Source: Candidatus Omnitrophota bacterium (lineage in GTDB: Bacteria; Omnitrophota; Gorgyraeia; Zapsychrales; Fredricksoniimonadaceae). Taken from it: 64,000 nt of DNA. The DNA lies in contig CAJARJ010000012.1 in the NCBI GenBank assembly GCA_903944345.1, positions 68,266 to 132,265 of the forward strand, read 5' to 3'. The notes below the pieces were generated by a model, which made no database searches, was not told where the DNA came from, and saw nothing but the letters and a program-made list of their open reading frames with translations. Positions 513 through 38,822 of this stretch are shown in pieces. Within the stretch, counting starts at the first letter, position 1, and each line of letters begins with the position of its first letter. A program made the position numbers and the translations under genes.

Positions 513-1208
513 TTATTCGCTTGCAAAAGCCCACATTTTTTCAACAGCCGTATCAACTGGTTTAGGCAAATTGCGGTCTTTAATAAAAGCGCCTAATGTC
601 CCTTTAGAACCAGAAACTTCTCTCGCAAGGCATTCAAGTGAAGCCATACTATGTTGAATAGCTCCGGTAACATCAGGTTCCGGTCTTTTTGATAAATCCT
701 CTCCTGCATGTTTTAATTCATTTAAAGCAGTGGGTCGCCCAGAATCATGTAAAAGAGATTTGGCTTCAGTTGTTATTTGCTCATAATCGCCTTCACCTCG
801 CACGGAAAGCACTCCACCTTCCATCTTCCAGCCGATGCCTTTTTTAAGAAAGAAATTATTTAACCCTTTCTCGAAGAACCTATCTGTTGCATCTTTTCGA
901 GCAAAAATTTCACAAATATCATAAACTTCAAACCATTCACAGTTATCAATCAAACCTTCACATTCATTAAGGACATTAGGATCACTCCAATTTTGAGCTT
1001 CATCCGGCAAGGAATCTAGCGCCTCACAAATAATGCTGCGCAAAGCCCTTGCATTAAATCCGCTCTTTAATGCTACGGACAATATTCCTCTTCGCAGAAA
1101 ACCTGGGGCCTCATAACGAACAGTAATGGACACTGTAGGTGCTTGATACCCATGTCTCTCTGAAAATAAAGGTTTTGTATTCATAAGGATTATGTCGCGA
1201 ATAAACAA
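513..1208 (-). CDS. Hypothetical protein (231 aa). Possible abortive-infection/defence-associated protein, but no motif recognised.
   Basis: Long ORF in the AT-rich island. It begins with a TTG start in the ORF track. It lies 6 bp downstream of a small membrane-protein gene on the same strand. Confidence 0.45.
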   Translation of the reverse strand: MFIRDIILMNTKPLFSERHGYQAPTVSITVRYEAPGFLRRGILSVALKSGFNARALRSIICEALDSLPDEAQNWSDPNVLNECEGLIDNCEWFEVYDICEIFARKDATDRFFEKGLNNFFLKKGIGWKMEGGVLSVRGEGDYEQITTEAKSLLHDSGRPTALNELKHAGEDLSKRPEPDVTGAIQHSMASLECLAREVSGSKGTLGAFIKDRNLPKPVDTAVEKMWAFASE

Positions 1209-1214
1209 TTACTT

Positions 1215-1547
1215 TTACCGCTCCTGTCCTTTCAATTTCCCAAGACCTGTATCAATCCAATCTATAATGCGATACGAATATCCGGCAATTCCGATAACTG
1301 TACCAATAGATAAAATTAAATCGACCTTATCCAATGAAGCAACCCGGAAATCTGGATTGCGAATCAAGAGAAGATATAAGCAAACCCACCCGGCTAACGA
1401 ACCTATAAACTCCGACAAAAAGATACCAGACGCCAATATTTTCTCTCCCTTCTTCCAGCTCTTTCCTTCTTCCACACAGCCATGAACACCCCAGAAAACA
1501 CTGGCAACAAGCGATATCCCCAAAAACAACCAAAAAGAAATTTGCAT
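1215..1547 (-). CDS. Small integral membrane protein (110 aa, about 3 predicted TM helices).
   Basis: Hydrophobic segments in the translation. Tightly linked upstream of the 231-aa ORF. Confidence 0.4.
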   Translation of the reverse strand: MQISFWLFLGISLVASVFWGVHGCVEEGKSWKKGEKILASGIFLSEFIGSLAGWVCLYLLLIRNPDFRVASLDKVDLILSIGTVIGIAGYSYRIIDWIDTGLGKLKGQER

Positions 1548-1710
1548 ATTATTCTCTCTTTCAGACTACCATCTTAATCCGTTTAATTGTACCCAATCCA
1601 TCGCTACGCGTTCATATTTCCAAAGATATAGGCCCTAACGCCAAATGAAGGAAAGAAATCATATTTTATCTTTCAAATTACAGTCCGAAACCTACTTTAA
1701 GTCAAATGTG

Positions 1711-2334
1711 TTAGACATTGCCAATATCTAATATCAAACGCGAACCATCCACCTCGGCTCCTATTCCGATTAAACGATCCCACCTCACGATATTGCCCTC
1801 TTTGCATTTATCTCTAAAACATTGAATCTGCTTAGCAAGATTAGAAATAGAATAAACTCGATATGTGATCCAAACCACTTCTCCTTTTGGTACAGATAAC
1901 GATCCAATAATCCGGTCATCCTCAGAACCTGGTTGTATAAAACCTGATTTTGTAATCCAAACATCCATTTCTGTTACCATATCGTCAGGCGCATTGGGTA
2001 TCCAACAAATGCCCTTCTTATGATCAACCTGATTAAGATTAACCTCAGATGATGGTGTAATAATGCGAAATGCTAATATTTCACCAGGTCTCATTTCCTT
2101 TGGGCGTTCCCAGATATCCAGATGCCTTATCTTTGACTTATCAAAAGTGTTTTCTGCGCTATCCCAATACTCTTCTGTAAATCCTATTTGCCAACTACCT
2201 GATTCATGCATACTTGCTTTCAAGGAACCTAAAGAACGACAAGTCAAATAGATATCTGGCGTTGTTTTGGACACAAAACAATTCCAAGTAGCCGCTTCAA
2301 AAGTTCCACTTTTAATGCCAAATCTTAAACACAT
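1711..2334 (-). CDS. Hypothetical protein (207 aa).
   Basis: ORF in the AT-rich island. No recognisable motif. Confidence 0.4.
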   Translation of the reverse strand: MCLRFGIKSGTFEAATWNCFVSKTTPDIYLTCRSLGSLKASMHESGSWQIGFTEEYWDSAENTFDKSKIRHLDIWERPKEMRPGEILAFRIITPSSEVNLNQVDHKKGICWIPNAPDDMVTEMDVWITKSGFIQPGSEDDRIIGSLSVPKGEVVWITYRVYSISNLAKQIQCFRDKCKEGNIVRWDRLIGIGAEVDGSRLILDIGNV

Positions 2335-2543
2335 CTTTTAGAACCCACTCTAAAGAACTTACCAATCGGACAATATTTAACAGATCAAACTTCTCTGCCC
2401 TAGAATTAAACTCAAATGAACCCATGCCAACTCCTCATCATCTAAAAACAAGATAATACTTCTTACCAATTCAATCTAATTTACCAATCTATATTAACCA
2501 AAATAAACACCTTACCAACCAATCCCACCCCTAATAAATAACT

Positions 2544-2656
2544 CCATTTTGCTTGGGGTTGTTCAAGACCCCTCCCCCTATCACAACCTATGGTTGAGGG
2601 GGTGGGGTCTTGAACGAACTGAAGAGCAAAGCGATTCAGAACCCCATGCAAAATGG
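2544..2656. repeat. Nested imperfect inverted repeat / long hairpin. Outer arms 2544..2558 and 2642..2656; inner 19-bp arms 2561..2579 and 2597..2615; side hairpin 2619..2639.
   Basis: Seen in the sequence. GTTCAAGACCCCTCCCCCT pairs with AGGGGGTGGGGTCTTGAAC. CCATTTTGCTTGGGG pairs with CCCCATGCAAAATGG. It lies in a 460-bp intergenic gap. Confidence 0.45.
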
Positions 2657-2793
2657 CAACTTAAGAAATCAAAAGATTACAGGAACATTTCCAATCTGTA
2701 ATTCAGCAGTAATAAATCTGTAATAAGAAACCCTGTAGAAAAAGCGCCAGAAGGCGCCTTCAAAGACATTAAACTAACTTCAACCTAATCTTT

Positions 2794-3522
2794 CTAAACA
2801 GGCTCATCTTTCTTTTGCGCCTTAGCCGCAGCCAACACAAACGCACAGAGGCCAACAAAAATTGCTGCCGCTAAAGCCACCAACAATAACGGACACAAAA
2901 TTCCAGCGATCACATAAAGCAAGAAAAAGAACCCGTCCTTGAGCCAATTAAAACTTTGCTGTTTGACCTTCTTGGCGACAACATCAAACCAGATATCGTT
3001 ATAAAAGTCTATCGGCATGACCTTGTAAGGCGGATTCTCAAAGCAATAAGCATCCGCCTTCTGCAATCCAGTTGCAATTAGCTCAGAACAAAAATAGGAA
3101 TCATTTACATTAAAACAATCACCCAAAAACTTCTTGTCCAACAGGAAATGCAATCCAGCTGGAAGAAAGTTGAACAACGCGAAATAGATCAACGCCCGAA
3201 AATCATACTTCTTTGATTCTTCACCTTTACAAAAAGCTACAACCTTAGCGATAGCCTGTGCATTCGCTTTTATCGGTCGCAGCGCAAGCAGATCTAATTT
3301 CTCCGTCAAATACGCTTCCTTAAAACTCCTTTTGACGATTCCTCCAGGAAATGCCTCAACAACTTGTCCATATCCGATATATAGCGCCGCATGAGTCCAA
3401 CCACGATCCCCATACCCCCTTTTGAAGAAATTGGCCGTTCTGATCGGAAGCGACCCAAGCTCAAATCCCCTGCCGCAGGTCAAAACGACATCGCCCGGTT
3501 GAAGTTTTTCTTCTAAAGACAT
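2794..3522 (-). CDS. YiiX/YaeF (DUF830) family permuted papain-like cysteine peptidase with a C-terminal TM anchor.
   Basis: Motifs GWTHAALYIG and CSELI, with a C-terminal hydrophobic helix. It lies 18 bp downstream of the His-rich ORF on the same strand. Confidence 0.5.
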   Translation of the reverse strand: MSLEEKLQPGDVVLTCGRGFELGSLPIRTANFFKRGYGDRGWTHAALYIGYGQVVEAFPGGIVKRSFKEAYLTEKLDLLALRPIKANAQAIAKVVAFCKGEESKKYDFRALIYFALFNFLPAGLHFLLDKKFLGDCFNVNDSYFCSELIATGLQKADAYCFENPPYKVMPIDFYNDIWFDVVAKKVKQQSFNWLKDGFFFLLYVIAGILCPLLLVALAAAIFVGLCAFVLAAAKAQKKDEPV

Positions 3523-3540
3523 AAATCCCCCCTCATGCCA

Positions 3541-3924
3541 TTAGGCTAAAAATACTGCCTGCTGACGATTTGCTGGCTGCTTAATTACCCAAAGACGATA
3601 CCCTTTTCCATCCGAGTCCGGCTCGCGATCTGGAAGATCTTCATGAGAAATGTATTCCCAATGCACTTCATCAAAGAAATAATGGTGCTCCCTGAAATAA
3701 TGATAAAGCAATACCGCTCGAGCAACATTATACGGTGACAAGAAATGATCAGGATGATGCTGCTTGATGTATTCAAGGTCTAAGCGAAAATGGTATTGAA
3801 AAGAATCTTCCACAATTTTCTGATGACAATTATTATCGCGATAGGAAACGAAACAAATAACATCATCCCAATCGACCCGATCCTGGCTTTGCCTTCCATA
3901 AACCTTCATACAAATCGGAACCAT
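3541..3924 (-). CDS. His-rich hypothetical protein (127 aa). Last gene of the nucleotidyltransferase operon.
   Basis: ORF starts 3 bp after the stop of the upstream nucleotidyltransferase gene. Confidence 0.4.
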   Translation of the reverse strand: MVPICMKVYGRQSQDRVDWDDVICFVSYRDNNCHQKIVEDSFQYHFRLDLEYIKQHHPDHFLSPYNVARAVLLYHYFREHHYFFDEVHWEYISHEDLPDREPDSDGKGYRLWVIKQPANRQQAVFLA

Positions 3925-3927
3925 TTG

Positions 3928-4755
3928 TTACTCCTCACTAAGCTCGCAAGGCAAAGGTAAGAATTCAGCAAACGCAGCCGCCGCTTCAGCCGCAAAGCCC
4001 TTATTCTCTAACGACTGAACACATTGAACAAAATCTTTCAATTTATGAATTAACTCGCGCTTCCTTTCGGCTTCCATGTATCCGATATCAAACCTATCAA
4101 CAAACCGATAGAAGTGAGCACATATTGATTTGGGTGATTCATCAAAAATTGATTCAGCACTCTCAACGATTTCAACCACCTTTTGTTCAATAAAGAACGA
4201 TTCAAAAAGATACCCATTCTTTGCATTCCAATATTTGATTATTCTGACCAGTGGCTTTATGAGCCCAGAAAATTTGGTGTTCACGCTGGAAAGCTTGTCA
4301 TTGAAACCTTTTGGATCTGTATCCATCCAGTCATCCCCACATAACGACTTTACTGGAATCTTCAGCCCGCCCGACCACCGAGATTTTCTTGCCGGAACCA
4401 ACTCAAAGTTAATATGATTCAACGACAATACGATTGCCGGCGCTGACTGCGCGATTTCAGATTTTGCATAGCTTGACTCGACAAAACGACGCAATCTATC
4501 TAAATACGTCTGTGGTCTATTATATGGATCAGCAAAGACTACCATTAAGTCCACATCCGAATTCTGATCGACACTACGAGGTAGAATAGTCCCTCGACTA
4601 TACGATCCAAAAATAAAGCTATCCACAATCTCTTGTCCCAAAGACGTATTTAGCCGCTCTTGTAACGTTGAAATTGATTTCTTAAGGCCGAGCTTCTCGC
4701 CATCGTCAACACCGACAAAATCGACCAATTCTAAAAGGTACCTATTTACCGACAT
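3928..4755 (-). CDS. SMODS/CD-NTase-like nucleotidyltransferase (Pol-beta superfamily), second copy in the operon.
   Basis: Motif GSYSRGTILPRSVDQNSDVDLMVVF (GS...DxD) and a downstream FELVP acidic residue. Start chosen at MSVNRYL with a GGAG ribosome-binding site; it overlaps the upstream gene's stop by 11 bp. Confidence 0.55.
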   Translation of the reverse strand: MSVNRYLLELVDFVGVDDGEKLGLKKSISTLQERLNTSLGQEIVDSFIFGSYSRGTILPRSVDQNSDVDLMVVFADPYNRPQTYLDRLRRFVESSYAKSEIAQSAPAIVLSLNHINFELVPARKSRWSGGLKIPVKSLCGDDWMDTDPKGFNDKLSSVNTKFSGLIKPLVRIIKYWNAKNGYLFESFFIEQKVVEIVESAESIFDESPKSICAHFYRFVDRFDIGYMEAERKRELIHKLKDFVQCVQSLENKGFAAEAAAAFAEFLPLPCELSEE

Positions 4756-5251
4756 GCCCCGCTCCATCCACTCCGTACTGCGATCTGCCGGAATCAATAT
4801 CAGTTTTTGCCAACTCATAATCTTTACGGCCCACCGCCAGTGCGGTCTGATTTAATTCATCTCGCATTCTGGACAATGACAATAACCGTTGCTTTGCGGC
4901 ATTAACATCTGCCTCCACCACTTCTATCTGCCTAAAAATACGTGCCGCATTTCGTAGGGCTAAATATTGTCCGCCATACGTTTTATGCTTTTCCGATCTT
5001 TCCGAAGGGCGTAAAAACGTCAACACTGTCGTTAATGCCGCCGATGCGACAGCACAGGCCACGGCCCAACTGGGAGCCTTCTGAACGACAGAAACACCAG
5101 CCAGTGCGGCAACAACAGAAGCAGGAATTCCAATTAACAAATGATACCCATTCCATCTATCTGCGGCGTTATATTGCCCCTTTGCAGAATGCTCCGAGTC
5201 TTCTTCGATTCTCTTTGCTTCCTTAATCATTTCCTGAATAATTTCAGCCAT
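4742..5251 (-). CDS. SLATT-like 2-TM protein, candidate membrane effector.
   Basis: Two central hydrophobic helices flanked by charged helices. A GGAGG ribosome-binding site sits 5 nt upstream of ATG (MAEIIQEM). Positioned between the two nucleotidyltransferase genes. Confidence 0.45.
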   Translation of the reverse strand: MAEIIQEMIKEAKRIEEDSEHSAKGQYNAADRWNGYHLLIGIPASVVAALAGVSVVQKAPSWAVACAVASAALTTVLTFLRPSERSEKHKTYGGQYLALRNAARIFRQIEVVEADVNAAKQRLLSLSRMRDELNQTALAVGRKDYELAKTDIDSGRSQYGVDGAGHVGK

Positions 5252-5268
5252 ACCGCCTCCAAAATCAA

Positions 5269-6330
5269 TCAAAACGTTTCACCGAAGATTTGCCGCCAAA
5301 GTTCAATCGCCTGATCTTGATTTCCAACCTGCTCAGCCTCAAATGCCAACCGGGCAACGCCAGCCATCTTGTTGACAATAAAACGATGGTGATCGGAAAC
5401 ATCCCCCGGAGAAACCAATGGAGCTTGATTCACAAATGACGACAAACTCCCCGAGCTTATCGCGACATTCACGGCATAGAAAGCAAAAGCAACTGCTTCC
5501 GATACTTTTGCAGCATAGTTTCCAGCGCTATTTGAATCCAGAAACCTCCTCGCTATGGCGAGCTCAACATAGTATGACTGCAACGCTCCGTTCAGCGCCT
5601 CCTTGTTCCAAAACTTGAGTATTTTAATCGCCTTCTTATATGACCGAGCATTATTCTGATGAAGCTTATTAGCAATTTCTTTATCAACTTTCGGATTGGT
5701 TCTAATCCATCCGTCCTGTCCGTCGGGTATTAAATAAAATTTCGCTTCACTTATTGCATCTGGCCGCATAAGAAAACAGGGAACGACATCAAACCCGAGA
5801 CCATCTTCGTCCTCGGTTTCGCCATGGGCCATCGCAATTCTTACGGCCTCCCCGTCAGGACGTACATCTGTTCTCGGATAATGCCTCTGAAGAACAGCAG
5901 ACAACCCACTGATCAGCTTTCTGGAAGATATGTAACTTCCGGACATCCATCGGGCAGTCAGTAAGGGATTGCTCGATAAGACACCATCTGAAACGACTGT
6001 ATAGGGAAGGCGTAATCCATCTTGAAGATAATTGAGACTGTACCCATCTAAAGGAAAATAAATATCAATATCATCAAGCGGCCATATTTTTGTGTGACGT
6101 GCAAACGATCCACCTAAAAAATCCCGATCCTGAACTGACAACACACTCGGAAAAGTTTGATCATTCTGATACTCGGATGATAAAAAATCTCTCAAATGAT
6201 TCTGGCTGTCACTAGCTTTCGACCTAATCCCATCCTCTATATTGATCTGCTTCCTCAACAACTCATCAAATGCACCGTTGACAGCGCTGCTCGCGGATTC
6301 TTTCAAAATAGCATTCAGTAATGCGCTCAT
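5269..6330 (-). CDS. SMODS/CD-NTase-like nucleotidyltransferase (Pol-beta superfamily), first copy, 353 aa.
   Basis: Motif GGSFARHTKIWPLDDIDIYF (GS...DxD) and a third acidic residue in GFDVVP. A GGAGG ribosome-binding site precedes the ATG. Confidence 0.55.
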   Translation of the reverse strand: MSALLNAILKESASSAVNGAFDELLRKQINIEDGIRSKASDSQNHLRDFLSSEYQNDQTFPSVLSVQDRDFLGGSFARHTKIWPLDDIDIYFPLDGYSLNYLQDGLRLPYTVVSDGVLSSNPLLTARWMSGSYISSRKLISGLSAVLQRHYPRTDVRPDGEAVRIAMAHGETEDEDGLGFDVVPCFLMRPDAISEAKFYLIPDGQDGWIRTNPKVDKEIANKLHQNNARSYKKAIKILKFWNKEALNGALQSYYVELAIARRFLDSNSAGNYAAKVSEAVAFAFYAVNVAISSGSLSSFVNQAPLVSPGDVSDHHRFIVNKMAGVARLAFEAEQVGNQDQAIELWRQIFGETF

Positions 6331-6334
6331 CCTT

Positions 6335-6547
6335 CTACCTCCCGTTAATCAAATCATTAAGGGAGGCCACACGCTTATGGTCCAGCAATGTATCCAAATG
6401 CATATCGGCTCGAACGCCAAGATCTACACCATACTTCTTTTCGATAGTGCCAATATGAGTATCGCCTCGCTTCGCGCGAAGCGGTCCTGCTTCAGTTCTC
6501 GATCTGCAACCTCTCATACCTGGAGCATCGTTCTTACATTTACTCAT
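6335..6547 (-). CDS. Small hypothetical protein (70 aa). First gene of the operon.
   Basis: An AGGAGG ribosome-binding site sits 6 nt upstream of ATG (MSKCKND). Its stop is 4 bp before the NTase-1 start. Confidence 0.4.
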   Translation of the reverse strand: MSKCKNDAPGMRGCRSRTEAGPLRAKRGDTHIGTIEKKYGVDLGVRADMHLDTLLDHKRVASLNDLINGR

Positions 6548-6838
6548 GGGAACCTCCTGTGTTTTTATTTGATTAAACTTGACGATTCCCATGTTGACTG
6601 GTCTAATACAGACAAAAAGGGAACAGAAGTCTCGTTTCAAGCGACCTTCCAAATTTCTCTTAAGCCCTCGGTTGCCGCCGAGGGCTTTTTCTTTCTATAA
6701 ATAATGTCTTCTGTATATCATTTCCCACCATTAGTAGTATACATCTCTTAAAGAATACCAATATATTGATTTCCTGTCAAGAATAAAAAACCACTCATAC
6801 GTGTGGCCACAAATCAATATCTTAAAAATTCCATGTTC

Positions 6839-6859
6839 TTTTACGCTTATAGCGTAAAA
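6839..6859. promoter_or_regulatory. Perfect 21-bp palindrome TTTTACGC-TTATA-GCGTAAAA, candidate operator.
   Basis: Seen in the sequence. It lies between the ImmA-like gene and the nucleotidyltransferase operon, inside its promoter region. Confidence 0.4.
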
Positions 6860-6875
6860 CGTAAATAAAAAAATA

Positions 6876-7586
6876 TTACCGCTCTCTAAGATCACGGTAA
6901 CTATCAATACCATTAAGCTGAAGTTCAAAATCATCTTCGGCAAGCGACAACAGCCCCAAGTTCTGTAAACGAATTGTAGCCGCCTGTTTTGAAACGTCGA
7001 ACAACCTCACTAAAGTGTTAACCAAAAACTCGTGATCGTTAGACTTTGATCGAATCTGCTTTACACATTGTTCAAAGATCGACCGTGGCATTAGTAAGGC
7101 TGCCGCTCCCCGATTCGCTTGCCACTCCGTATAATCACCAACCTTGGGCTGATCGTTTCCAACGTCTTCCTTAATTGTATGATTATGACAGAACAGCCTC
7201 CCCGCACCTTGAAAAAGAGGGCCATGAACTAACGCGTGAAACGACTCATGAGCACATGTAAAACGAAAACGCCCGCGCACCTGAACAGCGTTTCTTTCCT
7301 TGTATAAGCCTGCGCTTATCCTAATTAAACATGACTTGTCTTGATTAAAGACAGTCGCGCCTAAGACCCCAGACGGCAAATCAGAATCATCAGGACTGTA
7401 CTCAACGCGCTCCTTAAATAGCCGGTCGATAAAATTTCCGACATCGATGGCAGGACGATTGACATCAATCTTGCCTCCGCAAAAGCGGTAGTACCGCTCC
7501 TCCATGAAGTCATCGATATCAGCTCCCGAACAGATTAACCTCCGTCCGTAAGTAGCCTGATTGTCTGTTATCCAACGCATTGCCAT
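6876..7586 (-). CDS. ImmA/IrrE-family zinc metallopeptidase (CapP-like).
   Basis: HExxH motif (CAHESFHALVH). Immediately downstream of an XRE HTH gene. Confidence 0.6.
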   Translation of the reverse strand: MAMRWITDNQATYGRRLICSGADIDDFMEERYYRFCGGKIDVNRPAIDVGNFIDRLFKERVEYSPDDSDLPSGVLGATVFNQDKSCLIRISAGLYKERNAVQVRGRFRFTCAHESFHALVHGPLFQGAGRLFCHNHTIKEDVGNDQPKVGDYTEWQANRGAAALLMPRSIFEQCVKQIRSKSNDHEFLVNTLVRLFDVSKQAATIRLQNLGLLSLAEDDFELQLNGIDSYRDLRER

Positions 7587-7598
7587 ACTTTGCTCTCA

Positions 7599-7955
7599 TT
7601 ACTTGTCCAATTCCTTCTTTAAACGCTCAAGAACACCCGGGTCAGCTTGAGCCTTCTCTGCTATGCGACGAAACAACACCCCGACCTCTACTTCCTTGTT
7701 CACGGCATCTTCAATAATCGGGTCAACCTTGCCTGCCTTGCCCAACAGCTCTTGCACATCTAGATTCAAAACTTTCGCAAGCTGAACAACAACCTTCCCG
7801 GTTGGAGGATTGCGCCTCCCCTGCTCGATATCATTCAAATATGATACCGAAATGGCGTTTCCATCATCATTAAGTACGGCTTCGCAAACCTTGCGTAAAC
7901 TATATTCCAGCCTGAGCCGCTGTTGCTTTATATTTTGCCCAAATGTAATTACCAT
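7599..7955 (-). CDS. XRE-family helix-turn-helix transcriptional regulator (CapH-like).
   Basis: N-terminal HTH (QQRLRLEYSLRKVCEAV...SYLNDIEQGRR). Paired with the ImmA-like peptidase. Confidence 0.6.
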   Translation of the reverse strand: MVITFGQNIKQQRLRLEYSLRKVCEAVLNDDGNAISVSYLNDIEQGRRNPPTGKVVVQLAKVLNLDVQELLGKAGKVDPIIEDAVNKEVEVGVLFRRIAEKAQADPGVLERLKKELDK

Positions 7956-8068: not shown

Positions 8069-8098
8069 TTAATTAGTGACACACAGAATTGTTTCTTG
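8069..8098. repeat. 30-bp direct-repeat module, right copy (TTAATTAGTGACACACAGAATTGTTTCTT).
   Basis: 29 of 30 positions identical to 119..148. A TTGACA hexamer sits at 8096..8101. Confidence 0.7.
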
Positions 8099-8172
8099 AC
8101 ATTCTTTACGACAATTAAACTTGTTGCACTCTGGATTTTTTCATTGCAGTAGAATGTAACAGAATGTGATAG

Positions 8173-8190
8173 AACAATTCTGTGTGTCAC
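8173..8190. repeat. Inverted partner 18-mer AACAATTCTGTGTGTCAC, 78 bp from 8077..8094.
   Basis: Identical to 185..202. Confidence 0.7.
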
Positions 8191-8201
8191 CAGTTCCTTA
8201 T

Positions 8202-8222
8202 TGGCTCCCCCGCGAGGGCTCG
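8202..8222 (-). repeat. Duplicated 3' fragment of tRNA-Asn (acceptor/T-stem 18-mer plus an encoded CCA); att-like remnant.
   Basis: CTCCCCCGCGAGGGCTCG at 8205..8222 is identical to 8411..8428, the 3' end of the tRNA-Asn gene. It is preceded by TGG (CCA on the minus strand). Confidence 0.6.
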
Positions 8223-8405
8223 TTGCCTTCCGCTCGCGCTGAAGATCTTGGAAGGGATCCTTTATCAGCGCTCGCTACAGGTCACACCCCCGGCCCGCAC
8301 TCAGACGCTCCTGTTCGTCGCGTCTAGCGGGCCTCCTTTCTCGCCCTCGCTTCCTCCGTTATATCTAATAAAAAAGCCGCCCTGAAAAGGACGGCTTTTT
8401 TATTA
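8223..8405 (+). ncRNA. Candidate small RNA / conserved tRNA-flanking element, copy A.
   Basis: Paralogous to 38530..38735. Conserved hairpin AGACGC-UCCUGUUCGUC-GCGUCU. Ends in an intrinsic terminator. Convergent with the tRNA-Asn gene. Confidence 0.3.
8371..8401. terminator. Bidirectional rho-independent terminator (A-tract, GC hairpin, T-tract).
   Basis: AAAAAAGCCGCCCTGAAAAGGACGGCTTTTTT. It lies between tRNA-Asn (minus strand) and the candidate sRNA (plus strand). Confidence 0.6.
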
Positions 8406-8448
8406 AATAACTCCCCCGCGAGGGCTCGAACCTCGGACACTGTGGTTA

Positions 8449-9002
8449 CGATCTGACTTCAATTACTTGAAGAGTCGGACTTTCTCTTCGCCATACAAAA
8501 CAAAGTATGTTTTGCTTCAGGCGGCGGGTGTAAAGTCTCTGCACTTGCCCGGCCTTTTGACTAAAGGCCTGCTAGCTCAGGATTGACCTGATCTTTATGA
8601 CCAGGCTTTTCCTGACTTAGCCCGCTTGTCACTTCCGCGTTTCCACGGAAGGCTGCTAACTTTGAGAATGAGTTTCCCGGTGACAATTCGCACACAATAT
8701 CATGCACTTATCCAACTCGACTTTAACTCTTTCCCAACTTCGGGTATACCCTTTGCTGGAGATATTAAATTCTTTAACTGTTGGATCAATGTGATGAAAC
8801 TCTAACGCATCGATACAGCGATCATATCCGCAACGCTCACATTTGCCGCCTTTATAGGCAACAGCCATTTCACGCACTTTTTTACGGCGCGCATAAACAG
8901 CTTTAATGAGATATTCACGGCGATCATTGTAAGAACGGTTATCTTTTCTCACGCTGTCTCCTGAAGACTCGACACTCGGTTTGGACCAGCCAAACCTCGT
9001 GA
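8449..9002 (-). mobile_element. Candidate group I self-splicing intron with an HNH homing-endonuclease ORF.
   Basis: Exon 1 ends in U and the intron ends in G. R-like element GCAGAGACUUUA and S-like element AAGAGAAAGUCCGA can form a GACU/AGUC P7 helix. Several hairpins lie in the 3' 250 nt. The ORF has CxxC...HH...CxxCH. Confidence 0.6.
8656..8952 (-). CDS. HNH endonuclease (about 100 aa), encoded inside the intron.
   Basis: CERCGY...EFHHIDP...CANCHRETH. A GTG start has AGGAGA 5 nt upstream. The ORF-track frame is open back into exon 1, up to 9012. Confidence 0.55.
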   Translation of the reverse strand: MRKDNRSYNDRREYLIKAVYARRKKVREMAVAYKGGKCERCGYDRCIDALEFHHIDPTVKEFNISSKGYTRSWERVKVELDKCMILCANCHRETHSQS

Positions 9003-9139
9003 ACAGCCACATGCTCTACCAACTGAGCTACAGGGGAATGAAATTTAAAAGAGCGAATGTTTGCTGCCAAAAAAATATGCGGCAAACGAAAGCGAGATGA
9101 ATTATACAGATATATTTTATCTTGTCAACCACCGAAACG

Positions 9140-37609: not shown

Positions 37610-38506
37610 ATGATCCCATTTAACTACCACCACCTTTTTTACTTCTATACGATCGCGCGAACTGGCTCGATTGCAAAAGCCTGCCAGAAACTAAATCTTG
37701 CCCAGCCTACCATCAGCACACAGCTGAAACAGTTTGAACGGGATATTAAGGCCAAATTATTTATCAGGGAAAAGAAGAGACTGACCCTCACTGAAGAAGG
37801 CCGGCATGTTCTGTTCTACGCGACAGAGATTTTTGATGTGGGACGTGAAATGATGGACAGCATGAATGACTATTCCTTGCACGGCGGACTGAAGATTCAG
37901 ATCGGAATATCAAATCTGGTCCCTAAAGCCATCGTGGATGCTCTTCTGCAGTTCCTGTACAAGACAGCCCCAGAAGTTTACATATCCGTCTATGAAGACA
38001 AAACCGAGACACTCCTTGAGGGACTAAGAACACACCTTCTGGATATAGCCGTTTCTGATACAATAAAGCTTTCCCACGACGAAGCTGATATCGAGCACCA
38101 CCTAGCAGCCAAATTACCGATCCTATTCTGCGCAAACCAAAGCCTGGCACTGAAATACAAACGATTTCCTAAAGATCTGAACGAAGCGCCGATAATATTC
38201 CCAACAAACCAAAGTCGCACACACGAAGCCTTGCATGAATTCTTTATTCGTCACAAGATTGAACCCAGGATAGTAGGCGAAATCCAGGATGTTGAACTTG
38301 TCAGGCGACTGGTTCTTGCTGGCATCGGGATCGCCCCGCTTAACAAATTCACCGTGACCCAGGCACCAAGCAAAGAGCCTCTCGTCATCCTGAACCCCAA
38401 AGCACAGCCATCCATCTTTGAGCATATTTATCTTCTGACCAAGAAGCGCAAAAAGAAGCACCCTCTGGTACCTCGCATCATTGAGCATTTCCCAACAATT
38501 TACTAG
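37610..38506 (+). CDS. LysR-family transcriptional regulator.
   Basis: N-terminal HTH YHHLFYFYTIARTGSIAKA. 298 aa. Divergent from the 140-aa gene. Confidence 0.8.
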   Translation: MIPFNYHHLFYFYTIARTGSIAKACQKLNLAQPTISTQLKQFERDIKAKLFIREKKRLTLTEEGRHVLFYATEIFDVGREMMDSMNDYSLHGGLKIQIGISNLVPKAIVDALLQFLYKTAPEVYISVYEDKTETLLEGLRTHLLDIAVSDTIKLSHDEADIEHHLAAKLPILFCANQSLALKYKRFPKDLNEAPIIFPTNQSRTHEALHEFFIRHKIEPRIVGEIQDVELVRRLVLAGIGIAPLNKFTVTQAPSKEPLVILNPKAQPSIFEHIYLLTKKRKKKHPLVPRIIEHFPTIY

Positions 38507-38529
38507 CCTAACTCTGCCTGAGCGTTGCC

Positions 38530-38735
38530 CTCTCAGCGGTACGGACATCTGCCAGTCGCTCGGACAATTTTCGCTCGCCTCGTTCTTCAACTCGCTTGGT
38601 GGCAGATATCCTGCCCGCTTGCGGGCAACCACAAGGCCTTTAGGATGCTCCTGTTCGTCGCATCCAGCGGGGCTCCTCTTCGAATCCTTTCTTATAAATT
38701 AAGAAAGCCTTCCGGATTCCCGGAAGGCTTTTCAA
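38530..38735 (+). ncRNA. Candidate small RNA / conserved tRNA-flanking element, copy B.
   Basis: Shares GCTCCTGTTCGTCGC-R-TC-Y-AGCGGG with 8223..8405. The hairpin GGAUGC-loop-GCAUCC is a compensatory variant of copy A. Ends in terminator 38706..38733. Confidence 0.3.
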
Positions 38736-38739
38736 ATAA

Positions 38740-38822
38740 TGGGCAGGAAAGGATTCGAACCTTTGAAGCGCGAGCGCAACAGATTTACAGTCTGTCCCCT
38801 TTGGCCACTTGGGTACCTACCC
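38740..38822 (-). tRNA. tRNA-Tyr(GUA), long variable arm.
   Basis: Cloverleaf folded by hand. Anticodon loop CUGUAAA. T-loop GGTTCGAATCC. Confidence 0.75.

Follow-up and report, generated by a model that had tools for sequence, protein, structure and literature searches.

What kind of element are the two similar, hairpin-bearing intervals that each face a tRNA gene in this stretch of a Candidatus Omnitrophota contig, 64,000 nucleotides long and referred to below, as a whole, as the window? Copy A (8202-8410) and copy B (core at 38558-38692) lie convergent to the genes for tRNA-Asn and tRNA-Tyr, respectively, and an initial annotation of this DNA took them for two paralogous candidate small RNA (sRNA) genes, each ending in an intrinsic terminator shared with its tRNA gene. 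The shared motif, the terminators and the convergent tRNA genes are real, and both copies were re-located in the window and by a covariance model, R1, described below. The proposal of two sRNA genes gives way to a different picture: a repeat linked to the 3' ends of tRNA genes occurs in at least 45 copies, and A and B are two of them. In appearance these cassettes are closer to small pieces of inserted DNA than to an ordinary sRNA gene, and the reading that we prefer, tentatively and with somewhat less than even confidence, is that both copies are non-autonomous, non-coding DNA cassettes which integrate at the T-loop position of tRNA genes.

The 15-mer GCTCCTGTTCGTCGC has just two exact matches in the window, at 8307-8321 and 38647-38661, both on the plus strand; three further matches carry three mismatches each, which is the level of chance. 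The hairpin is formed by AGACGC (8303-8308) and GCGTCT (8320-8325) in copy A and by GGATGC (38643-38648) and GCATCC (38660-38665) in copy B, where the loop occupies 38649-38659; the loop, TCCTGTTCGTC, is identical in the two, and AGCGGG-S-CTCC stands 3' of the hairpin in both. The full copy A unit is wider than was initially described. It is bordered by an 18-nt exact direct repeat, CTCCCCCGCGAGGGCTCG (8205-8222 and 8411-8428; chance expectation 0.03), which is the 3' end of tRNA-Asn, and neither this repeat nor the inverted partial tRNA copies at 8338-8350 and 38679-38691 had been recognised before.

Across the family the cassette is non-coding, about 130-230 bp long, and arranged on the plus strand in a five-part order of left piece, core, right piece, spacer and tRNA gene. 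The left piece corresponds, in reverse complement, to the stretch of the local tRNA that begins near nt 56, in the T-loop, and reaches the 3' end at about nt 76, often with a few flanking bases. The conserved core, of 85-110 nt, is made of two arms, A and B, and the hairpin first noticed is helix P2 of arm B; its pattern reads GGCGCCC-(variable hairpin)-GGGTCGGCC-AYYC-GCCCCGC-N4-5-(6-bp stem)-UCC-N4-6-GUC-(stem)-N0-1-GCGGGGC-TCC, with a CTCC motif repeated in the internal loops of arm A, in the P2 loop and at the 3' junction. The right piece repeats the local tRNA in sense orientation, starting at nt 53/54 and taking in the 3' strand of the T-stem, usually about 12 nt and longest (21-23 nt) in L043, L082 and L009 (loci outside the window are cited by such numbers). 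The non-palindromic T-loops TTCAAGT, TTCAATT, TTCGATT and TTCGACT are copied in it faithfully, and it is therefore a true inverted copy of the tRNA tail. The spacer is either 12-30 A/T-rich nucleotides or a palindromic terminator; a terminator lies 3' of the core in both window copies and at about nine other loci, and the majority of members have none.

In this layout, two direct copies of the tRNA tail flank the cassette, one completing the gene and the other displaced to the far side. Over 25 loci the direct repeat, comparing the left piece with the gene, is 13-27 nt, or 45 nt in L141, where the duplication with its flank comes to 45-48 nt; its inner end always falls in the T-loop and its outer end from -5 to +7 nt relative to the tRNA 3' end. 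The displaced tail continues into CCA in copy A, L002, L007 and L134, and does not at Ser, Gln and His loci. The left and right pieces can pair on either strand, closing a three-way junction with arms A and B; the closing stem comprises the 3' part of the local T-loop and the T-stem duplex, with or without the acceptor stem, and is 8 bp long in copy A, reaching 17-21 bp at other loci. In this putative minihelix the T-loop itself is replaced by the core. No palindromes consisting of the minihelix alone were found behind the other tRNA genes of the window (Pro, Gly). The features of the two window copies follow, with the strand where one applies.

8202-8222, minus strand: displaced (distal) copy of the tRNA-Asn 3' end in copy A; read on the minus strand, nt 56-73 and then CCA
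8212-8350: three-way junction of copy A, its closing stem formed by 8212-8219 (GCGAGGGC) with 8343-8350 (GCCCTCGC)
8222-8285: arm A of copy A, a long, lineage-specific form of the family's variable hairpin arm
8292-8333: arm B of copy A, with P1, P2 and the conserved loop at 8309-8319 (TCCTGTTCGTC)
8338-8350, plus strand: inverted partial tRNA-Asn copy in copy A (T-loop, 3' strand of the T-stem, first acceptor base)
8362-8409: spacer of copy A, bidirectional and terminator-like, a palindromic A-run/hairpin/T-run with 22-nt arms that are 91% complementary
8411-9037, minus strand: tRNA-Asn(GUU) gene, with 5' exon 9037-9002, intron 9001-8448 and 3' exon 8447-8411
38558-38692: core of copy B, a covariance model match of 29 bits; 3' strand of P1 at 38667-38673
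38679-38691, plus strand: inverted partial tRNA-Tyr copy in copy B (T-loop, 3' strand of the T-stem and one further nucleotide)
38704-38731: palindromic terminator hairpin of copy B, conserved with L043
38740-38822, minus strand: tRNA-Tyr(GUA), last gene of a tRNA-Thr/tRNA-Tyr pair

In copy A the inverted piece TTCTCGCCCTCGC matches the corresponding part of tRNA-Asn, TTCGAGCCCTCGC, at 11 of 13 positions, P1 (8292-8298 with 8327-8333, GGCCCGC/GCGGGCC) is a compensated variant of the family's GCCCCGC/GCGGGGC, P2 pairs 8303-8308 with 8320-8325, and the terminator-like palindrome sits between the cassette and the tRNA-Asn gene. The predicted fold of copy A has z-scores of -3.8 on the plus strand and -4.75 on the minus strand. 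Copy B is, judging by sequence comparison, a decayed orthologue of the intact tRNA-Tyr cassette in the metagenome-assembled genome (MAG) nHGRbin18 (L043). It shares with that cassette a conserved tRNA, terminator, right piece and arm B, but has another sequence in place of arm A and an insertion of 18 nt separating P1 from P2. Its inverted piece, 38679-38691, is complementary at 13 of 13 positions to 38747-38759 in the tRNA-Tyr gene, and no distal direct copy of the tRNA-Tyr 3' end is left in the window. A small irregularity recurs in the right pieces of several members: T-loops of the form TTCGAGY appear there as TTCTCGY, with GA changed to TC, at three tRNAs in three MAGs (copy A at 8338-8344, L004 and L089), and in L088 the T-loop TTCGACT reads TTCTCCC. 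With this change in the middle of the T-loop, the closing stem is mismatched over 2 nt at its inner end.

How widely the cassette occurs was addressed by exact-pattern scans of GTDB representative genomes and JGI metagenomes, in which the motif was almost confined to Candidatus Omnitrophota MAGs, and by a nucleotide profile (nhmmer) followed by covariance model R1, built on 18 copies from outside the window. Model R1 recognises 45 copies among the loci collected, several per MAG. Run on the 64-kb window with its filters off, it returns exactly two matches, copy A (8207-8351, 67.8 bits, E 1.6e-15) and copy B (38558-38692, 29 bits, E 2e-5). In 26 contexts ARAGORN calls a convergent tRNA gene that lies downstream of the core at a distance of 24-84 nt; in a 27th the tRNA is 235 nt away and the core is the outer unit of a tandem pair. 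Further tRNA-linked copies were recognised by eye at contig ends or beside intron-split or interrupted genes. Beside one cassette, L101:600-716(-), a tRNA-Lys-like gene appears broken just after the anticodon region, and this may be a further intron-split tRNA. The tRNA genes concerned represent 18 anticodons (Asn, Tyr, four Ser, two Gln, two Val, Pro, Met, Lys, Arg, His, Asp, Gly and Trp). Some tRNA loci hold a cassette in several MAGs, as with Gln-CTG (four), Tyr (four) and Ser-CGA (three).

The family is apparently undescribed so far. At the gathering threshold Rfam 15 finds tRNAs and a group I intron in the window and no family for the cassette, a point on which the suggested novelty is supported; at E<=10 copy A gives sub-threshold matches only, driven by the terminator, and at E<=5 the canonical member L124 gives nothing relevant. 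IMG/VR, PLSDB and phage genomes held no match to the cassette, and a full-text search of the literature found no account of such tRNA-flanking structured repeats or miniature integrative elements. Not every copy adjoins a tRNA gene. In MAG ERP125453_co1_223, labelled Planctomycetia (L096, L121, L131, L139), the core is a dispersed repeat of about 200 bp with conserved flanks of its own, a closing stem GCGAGGGGC/GCCCCCTCGC, an additional hairpin and no tRNA within 400 nt, and these copies often adjoin a palindrome, CCAGAGGGAACCGAGGGTTCCCTCTGG, that resembles repetitive extragenic palindromic (REP) sequences. Two other cassettes, L027:1250-1340(-) and L005:2200-2290, are followed not by a tRNA but by a common sequence, cgggtagtcgt.gacg...acttgtgaaact.taccgcaaacg, for which Rfam holds no match at the gathering threshold; in L005 a gene pair resembling helix-turn-helix (HTH)/toxin-antitoxin genes comes after it.

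It is clear that the folded interior of the cassette is maintained. In a model-guided alignment of 43 distinct copies, fitted to the model's own structure, 93% of cells pair, whereas shuffling gives 84% and a shift of the partners by 1-3 columns gives no more than 53%; both sides change in 17 pairs, and none of 500 shuffles matches the observed score. The earlier suggestion that the hairpin is selected for pairing is borne out by these homologues, since double changes occur in five of the six pairs of P2 and 97.5% of its cells are paired across the 43 copies. Arm A and P1 are nearly invariant in sequence, and P2 varies while staying Watson-Crick around a conserved loop. Covariation in the closing stem is of another kind, resulting from the way in which the flanks are made. 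An RNA read from one strand usually shows a clear excess of G.U wobbles on its own strand, and complementarity kept on both strands is the pattern of DNA hairpins or palindromes. Among about 790 cells in the three core helices there are 6 G.T wobbles on the plus strand versus 8 A.C, which would be wobbles on the minus strand, and P2 has none of the former and two of the latter. Wobbles are thus rare and strand-symmetric and single out neither strand, and the complementarity is therefore kept on both strands, as in DNA hairpins.

Nor is the interval a gene for a small protein. Core lengths among members are 83, 85, 86, 87, 89, 107 and 108 nt, with hairpins gained or lost, and the small plus-strand open reading frames (ORFs) at 8182-8385 and 38481-38702, already described as of low complexity, can be rejected as coding because their frame is broken by insertions and deletions that are not multiples of three and by the gain and loss of hairpins. 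On the reading preferred here, P2 would be a structural requirement of the cassette, and not evidence for a stand-alone sRNA.

Comparison of loci supplies the history. At tRNA-Val(CAC), L004 has no cassette and L077 has one, and the outer flanks of the two sites are orthologous; L078 holds a tandem pair of units that are 100% identical; upstream units that are older and degenerate are present in L091, itself a tandem locus, and in L001; the ends of six contigs fall within the element; and copy B, L005, L013, L136 and L140 are truncated or decayed. Core subtypes group partly by genome, and orthologous sites hold different subtypes, such as tRNA-Pro in L002 versus L007, where the different cores stand beside a conserved spacer. 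Filled and empty sites, tandems, decayed copies and contig breaks together point to an inserted or duplicating DNA cassette.

The tRNA-Asn locus of copy A is especially instructive. Gene order from RecR to tRNA-Asn is conserved in Omnitrophota, and the closest match of the window's RecR is 74% identical and comes from an Omnitrophota MAG. The type-1 core was found at none of 39 related tRNA-Asn loci, and copy A is therefore lineage-specific. In about half of the relatives the tRNA-Asn gene encodes CCA and then AT(T), as in GGGGGAGccaatt. Copy A's displaced tail (GGGGGAGccaataagg, ending in CCAAT) resembles these intact tRNA-Asn ends, and the gene-side copy is without CCA and leads into the palindromic terminator; from the likeness to relatives, the displaced copy looks like the ancestral end of the gene, and the gene-side tail and terminator look newly introduced. 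A different non-coding insert stands behind tRNA-Asn in L161 (3970-4130), L172 (7440-7640) and L174 (5765-6000), where a hairpin, GAAGAACCTWATGCSGAAGGCATRRGGTTC, is common to the three and the order is again a gene without CCA, a palindromic terminator, the insert and a displaced tRNA-Asn tail. L174 carries two such inserts in series, and L145 and L177 hold a third type of insert at tRNA-Asn. Since other inserts at this gene share the layout, small structured inserts at the T-loop site are a wider habit of these genomes.

One plausible mechanism is that the cassette inserts, or is duplicated, at the position of the tRNA gene that encodes T-loop nt 55/56. A folded single strand, more probably of DNA than of RNA, would be acted on by a recombinase or nuclease whose gene lies in another part of the genome, and the stem of this folded strand would imitate the T-stem/acceptor duplex of the target tRNA gene. 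Integration in the T-loop would leave the gene intact because the end of the cassette on the gene side would bring a tRNA tail and a terminator, and the direct repeats, once present, would drive both tandem amplification and precise loss.

Several simpler schemes were tried and set aside. A long target-site duplication fits L141, and does not fit copy A, the first L078 copy or L174. Fold-back synthesis at a T-arm palindrome is rejected on the ground that the right piece holds non-palindromic T-loops in sense orientation; the same T-loops rule out an attachment site (attR) with an insertion in its overlap, and they place the symmetry axis inside the core.

A number of observations weigh against integration at the T-loop. 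No one integration model fits all loci; the spacer is the distal flank in L141, as after a long target duplication, and is unrelated to it in copy A, the first L078 copy and L174; and the model does not account for how each new tRNA comes by its inverted copy. No protein family recurs within 5 kb of the copies, be it an integrase or other recombinase, a transposase, an HUH protein or a reverse transcriptase (RT), and all that recurs there is synteny between orthologous tRNA loci. None of the window's annotated genes is for a recombinase, transposase, HUH protein or RT, and plasmids, phages and viral contigs yielded no autonomous full-length relative. Compensatory changes distinguish copies of one and the same genome, and several MAGs have cassettes at the same tRNA loci, so many copies are old and structurally maintained, which also fits a host function. 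The invariance of arm A and P1 across distant MAGs likewise suggests, as far as sequence can, a sequence-specific function.

Such a function is the core of the alternative that survives best, unlikely though we consider it, in which the cassette is a functional non-coding RNA (ncRNA) made from the tRNA strand (the minus strand of the window), either co-transcribed with the tRNA or reached by read-through from it. The 5' end of this RNA, complementary to T-loop and T-stem, would pair with a 3' copy of tRNA nt 56-76 to cap the two-hairpin core with a minihelix. This cap might offer a recognition site to RNase P, RNase Z or the CCA-adding enzyme, by analogy with the tRNA-like t-elements that mark off transcripts, giving the RNA stable, defined ends or providing a processing or termination signal for the tRNA operon. 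At roughly half of the loci just a T-rich spacer of 12-30 nt, with no hairpin, precedes the cassette on this strand, and a T-run follows the displaced tail as it does behind real tRNA genes. Mimicry of the full acceptor and T-stem reaches 17-21 bp in L043, L082, L088 and L009, the minus-strand fold is always the more stable (z -4.0, -4.75), the sequences of arm A, P1 and the P2 loop are conserved across distant MAGs, and occupancy of the same loci is old and orthologous. Against this, a strong terminator separates tRNA and cassette in both window copies and at least nine other loci, with no space for a promoter, and the minus strand has no excess of G.U (8 versus 6). Decay and truncation moreover fall at the would-be tRNA-like 3' end (copy B, L136, L140), the Planctomycetia-labelled copies have no tRNA mimicry, and the core replaces the T-loop, so that the element which defines recognition of the tRNA elbow is missing.

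The plus-strand sRNA that was initially proposed, now envisaged as about 150-200 nt long and ending at the shared bidirectional terminator, with the P2 loop or four CUCC(U) motifs of anti-Shine-Dalgarno type as its putative functional sites, seems to us improbable. Terminators do lie directly 3' of the core in both window copies and in L006, L043, L047, L078, L082, L088, L089 and L136, P2 covaries, and the CTCC motif recurs in the internal loops of arm A, in the P2 loop and at the 3' junction. Most members, though, have no terminator, and their RNA would run antisense into the tRNA; wobbles are not in excess (6 G.T, none in P2); and such an RNA leaves the direct and inverted copies of the tRNA tail, the tandems and the filled and empty sites unexplained. 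A simple scan for sigma-70-like promoters called none on the plus strand upstream of copy A or copy B. The same scan finds the promoter of tRNA-Asn at 9128-9101(-), TTGACA-16-TATAAT, which matches the consensus at 12 of 12 positions, and promoter scans of E. coli type are therefore informative in this host. Evidence for a plus-strand transcript is, from the sequence, weak.

That the cassettes are inert scars, the attL/attR sites and arm regions of larger tRNA-integrating islands or prophages left after internal deletion, with no present activity and with the conserved core as a former arm region beside attP, we regard as decidedly improbable. The idea had been allowed for from the outset, in the form of homologues always adjacent to attachment (att) sites and integrases, and half of it stands: att-like tRNA repeats do adjoin the homologues, and they have the same extent, T-loop to tRNA 3' end, as att sites in tRNA-integrating elements. 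The integrase half does not stand, none being found within 5 kb. Copy A also borders a defence-type island (AbiJ, two SMODS proteins, ImmA/HTH), and its displaced copy has the look of an ancestral 3' end. None of about 40 loci, however, holds a longer, gene-bearing version between the repeats, and the same minimal architecture is found at 18 tRNA anticodons. Compensatory changes, a conserved loop and invariant helices speak of continuing constraint, and the identical tandem units of L078 are recent.

Least probable is an RNA-mediated element resembling a short interspersed nuclear element (SINE), the structured RNA of which would undergo reverse transcription and enter the T-loop-coding DNA at a nick, with variable target duplications as in target-primed reverse transcription and an inverted copy made by snap-back synthesis: the variable outer end of the duplication (45-48 nt with flank in L141), the variable length and abrupt end of the inverted copy, and a conserved internal structure with target-derived termini suit it, but there is no RT gene within 5 kb of any copy, the spacer is not a distal-flank copy at most loci, and no poly(A)-like or other 3' tail is present. 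A related model, in which a mature tRNA serves as primer as at a retroviral primer-binding site, was rejected, given that the displaced copies at Ser, Gln and His loci, where the tRNA gene encodes no CCA, are without CCA too and that the repeats include genomic flank shared with the gene; the CCA of copy A is better explained as an ancestral gene end, because the tRNA-Asn genes of relatives end alike.

Parallels with known systems help to place the cassette that we suppose to integrate at the T-loop. The att sites of tyrosine integrases reportedly lie, at tRNA genes, in a T-loop sublocation. As with tRNA-integrating islands and prophages, the repeats run from T-loop to 3' end, the gene is left intact, a 3' copy is displaced and units are stacked serially. 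Unlike islands, the cassette is 130-230 bp long and has no genes, no integrase lies between its repeats or within 5 kb, one core serves 18 anticodons, there is an extra, inverted copy of the tail, and the interior is folded and conserved and is not cargo. Transposable elements of the miniature inverted-repeat type (MITEs) and REP repeats with their bacterial interspersed mosaic elements (BIMEs) are similarly short, non-coding, multi-copy and rich in hairpins, break assemblies, and are gained, decay and amplify; presence/absence polymorphism is a further MITE-like trait. MITEs, however, have conserved terminal inverted repeats and a drifting interior, whereas the cassette takes its termini from the target and keeps its interior conserved, so that the inverted repeats, being copied from the local tRNA, differ at every locus. 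A short target duplication of fixed length is also lacking, since the duplicated segment measures 13-48 nt and its outer end varies, the target is strictly the tRNA T-loop, and no autonomous partner was found.

The integron attC site and the attP(+) of CTX-phi offer a parallel in structure: two inverted segments about 90 nt apart fold into a stem that mimics a duplex target, the stems covary with few conserved positions, and units accumulate in tandem beside a fixed site. The cassette differs in that no R/L box GTTRRRY was seen by eye at its borders, where the T-loop reads GTTCGAA, in direct repeats of 18-45 bp as opposed to 6-7 bp, and in a stem that imitates only the half of the tRNA gene from T-loop to 3' end. 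Palindrome-associated transposable elements (PATEs) derived from IS200/IS605 are alike in having two close hairpins, a possible single-strand DNA biology and no coding capacity. To our knowledge, IS200/IS605 elements have no target duplication and no terminal inverted repeats, and no TnpA or TnpB gene was found near the cassettes. The GCGCCCTCC of the core may resemble the nick region of a MOBQ origin of transfer (oriT), a likeness on which nothing here relies. On the RNA side, the plant mitochondrial t-elements, mimics of the type of MALAT1-associated small cytoplasmic RNA (mascRNA) and acceptor/T-arm minihelices likewise have a closing stem of T-stem with or without acceptor, and on the tRNA strand that of the cassette is followed by a discriminator base and a T-run. 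It departs from these mimics in having a two-hairpin junction in place of the T-loop and in mimicry that is often limited to 8-12 bp.

If the cassette is mobile, a gene-less element of 130-230 bp targets many tRNA genes without damaging them, carrying direct and inverted copies of their tails, which is a solution distinct from both integrase-bearing islands and MITEs and suggests that an enzyme acting in trans recognises the T-loop region, perhaps in the form of folded single-stranded DNA. Should the copies be RNAs, they would make up a new class of tRNA-linked ncRNA in a poorly known, largely uncultured phylum. Either novel reading, if true, would bring a principle of targeting or of maturation not described for bacterial elements. 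That such a new principle is at work, be it a gene-less mobile cassette that re-tailors its ends to each target or RNAs capped by a minihelix of the neighbouring tRNA, is on the unlikely side though well worth entertaining; the cassette would carry a copy of its neighbour's acceptor/T-stem minihelix and would be moved in trans by an Omnitrophota enzyme acting at the T-loop. In practical terms, the cassettes break MAG assemblies at tRNA loci, their partial tRNA copies can mislead predictors of att sites and islands, and covariance model R1 is a compact marker for Omnitrophota contigs.

The tRNA-Asn gene beside copy A has a feature of its own. Joining exons 9037-9002 and 8447-8411 yields a 73-nt tRNA-Asn(GUU), which is split after the anticodon by a 554-nt group I intron (Rfam RF00028, 8456-8711(-), 60.9 bits) with an HNH endonuclease ORF inside it, and because the intron interrupts the gene, ARAGORN does not call it. 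A text search of the literature found no report of bacterial tRNA-Asn group I introns, and the arrangement of RecR and an intron-bearing tRNA-Asn is also present in at least seven Omnitrophota MAGs (L146, L150, L154, L158, L159, L161, L162).

The annotated genes of the window are housekeeping genes and, to the left of copy A, the defence-type island at 513-7955, which lies directly beyond the displaced tRNA copy and also holds several ORFs with no Pfam match. Its recognisable members are listed here.

513-1208, minus strand: protein with an AbiJ N-terminal domain
3928-4818 and 5269-6330, minus strand: two SMODS nucleotidyltransferases
6876-7586, minus strand: ImmA/IrrE peptidase
7599-7955, minus strand: HTH regulator

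Between the promoter region of this HTH gene and copy A lies an inverted repeat of 35 nt, 83% complementary, with arms at 8071-8105 and 8161-8195 that are 55 nt apart, and this repeat (8071-8195) may be an operator or another small repeat.

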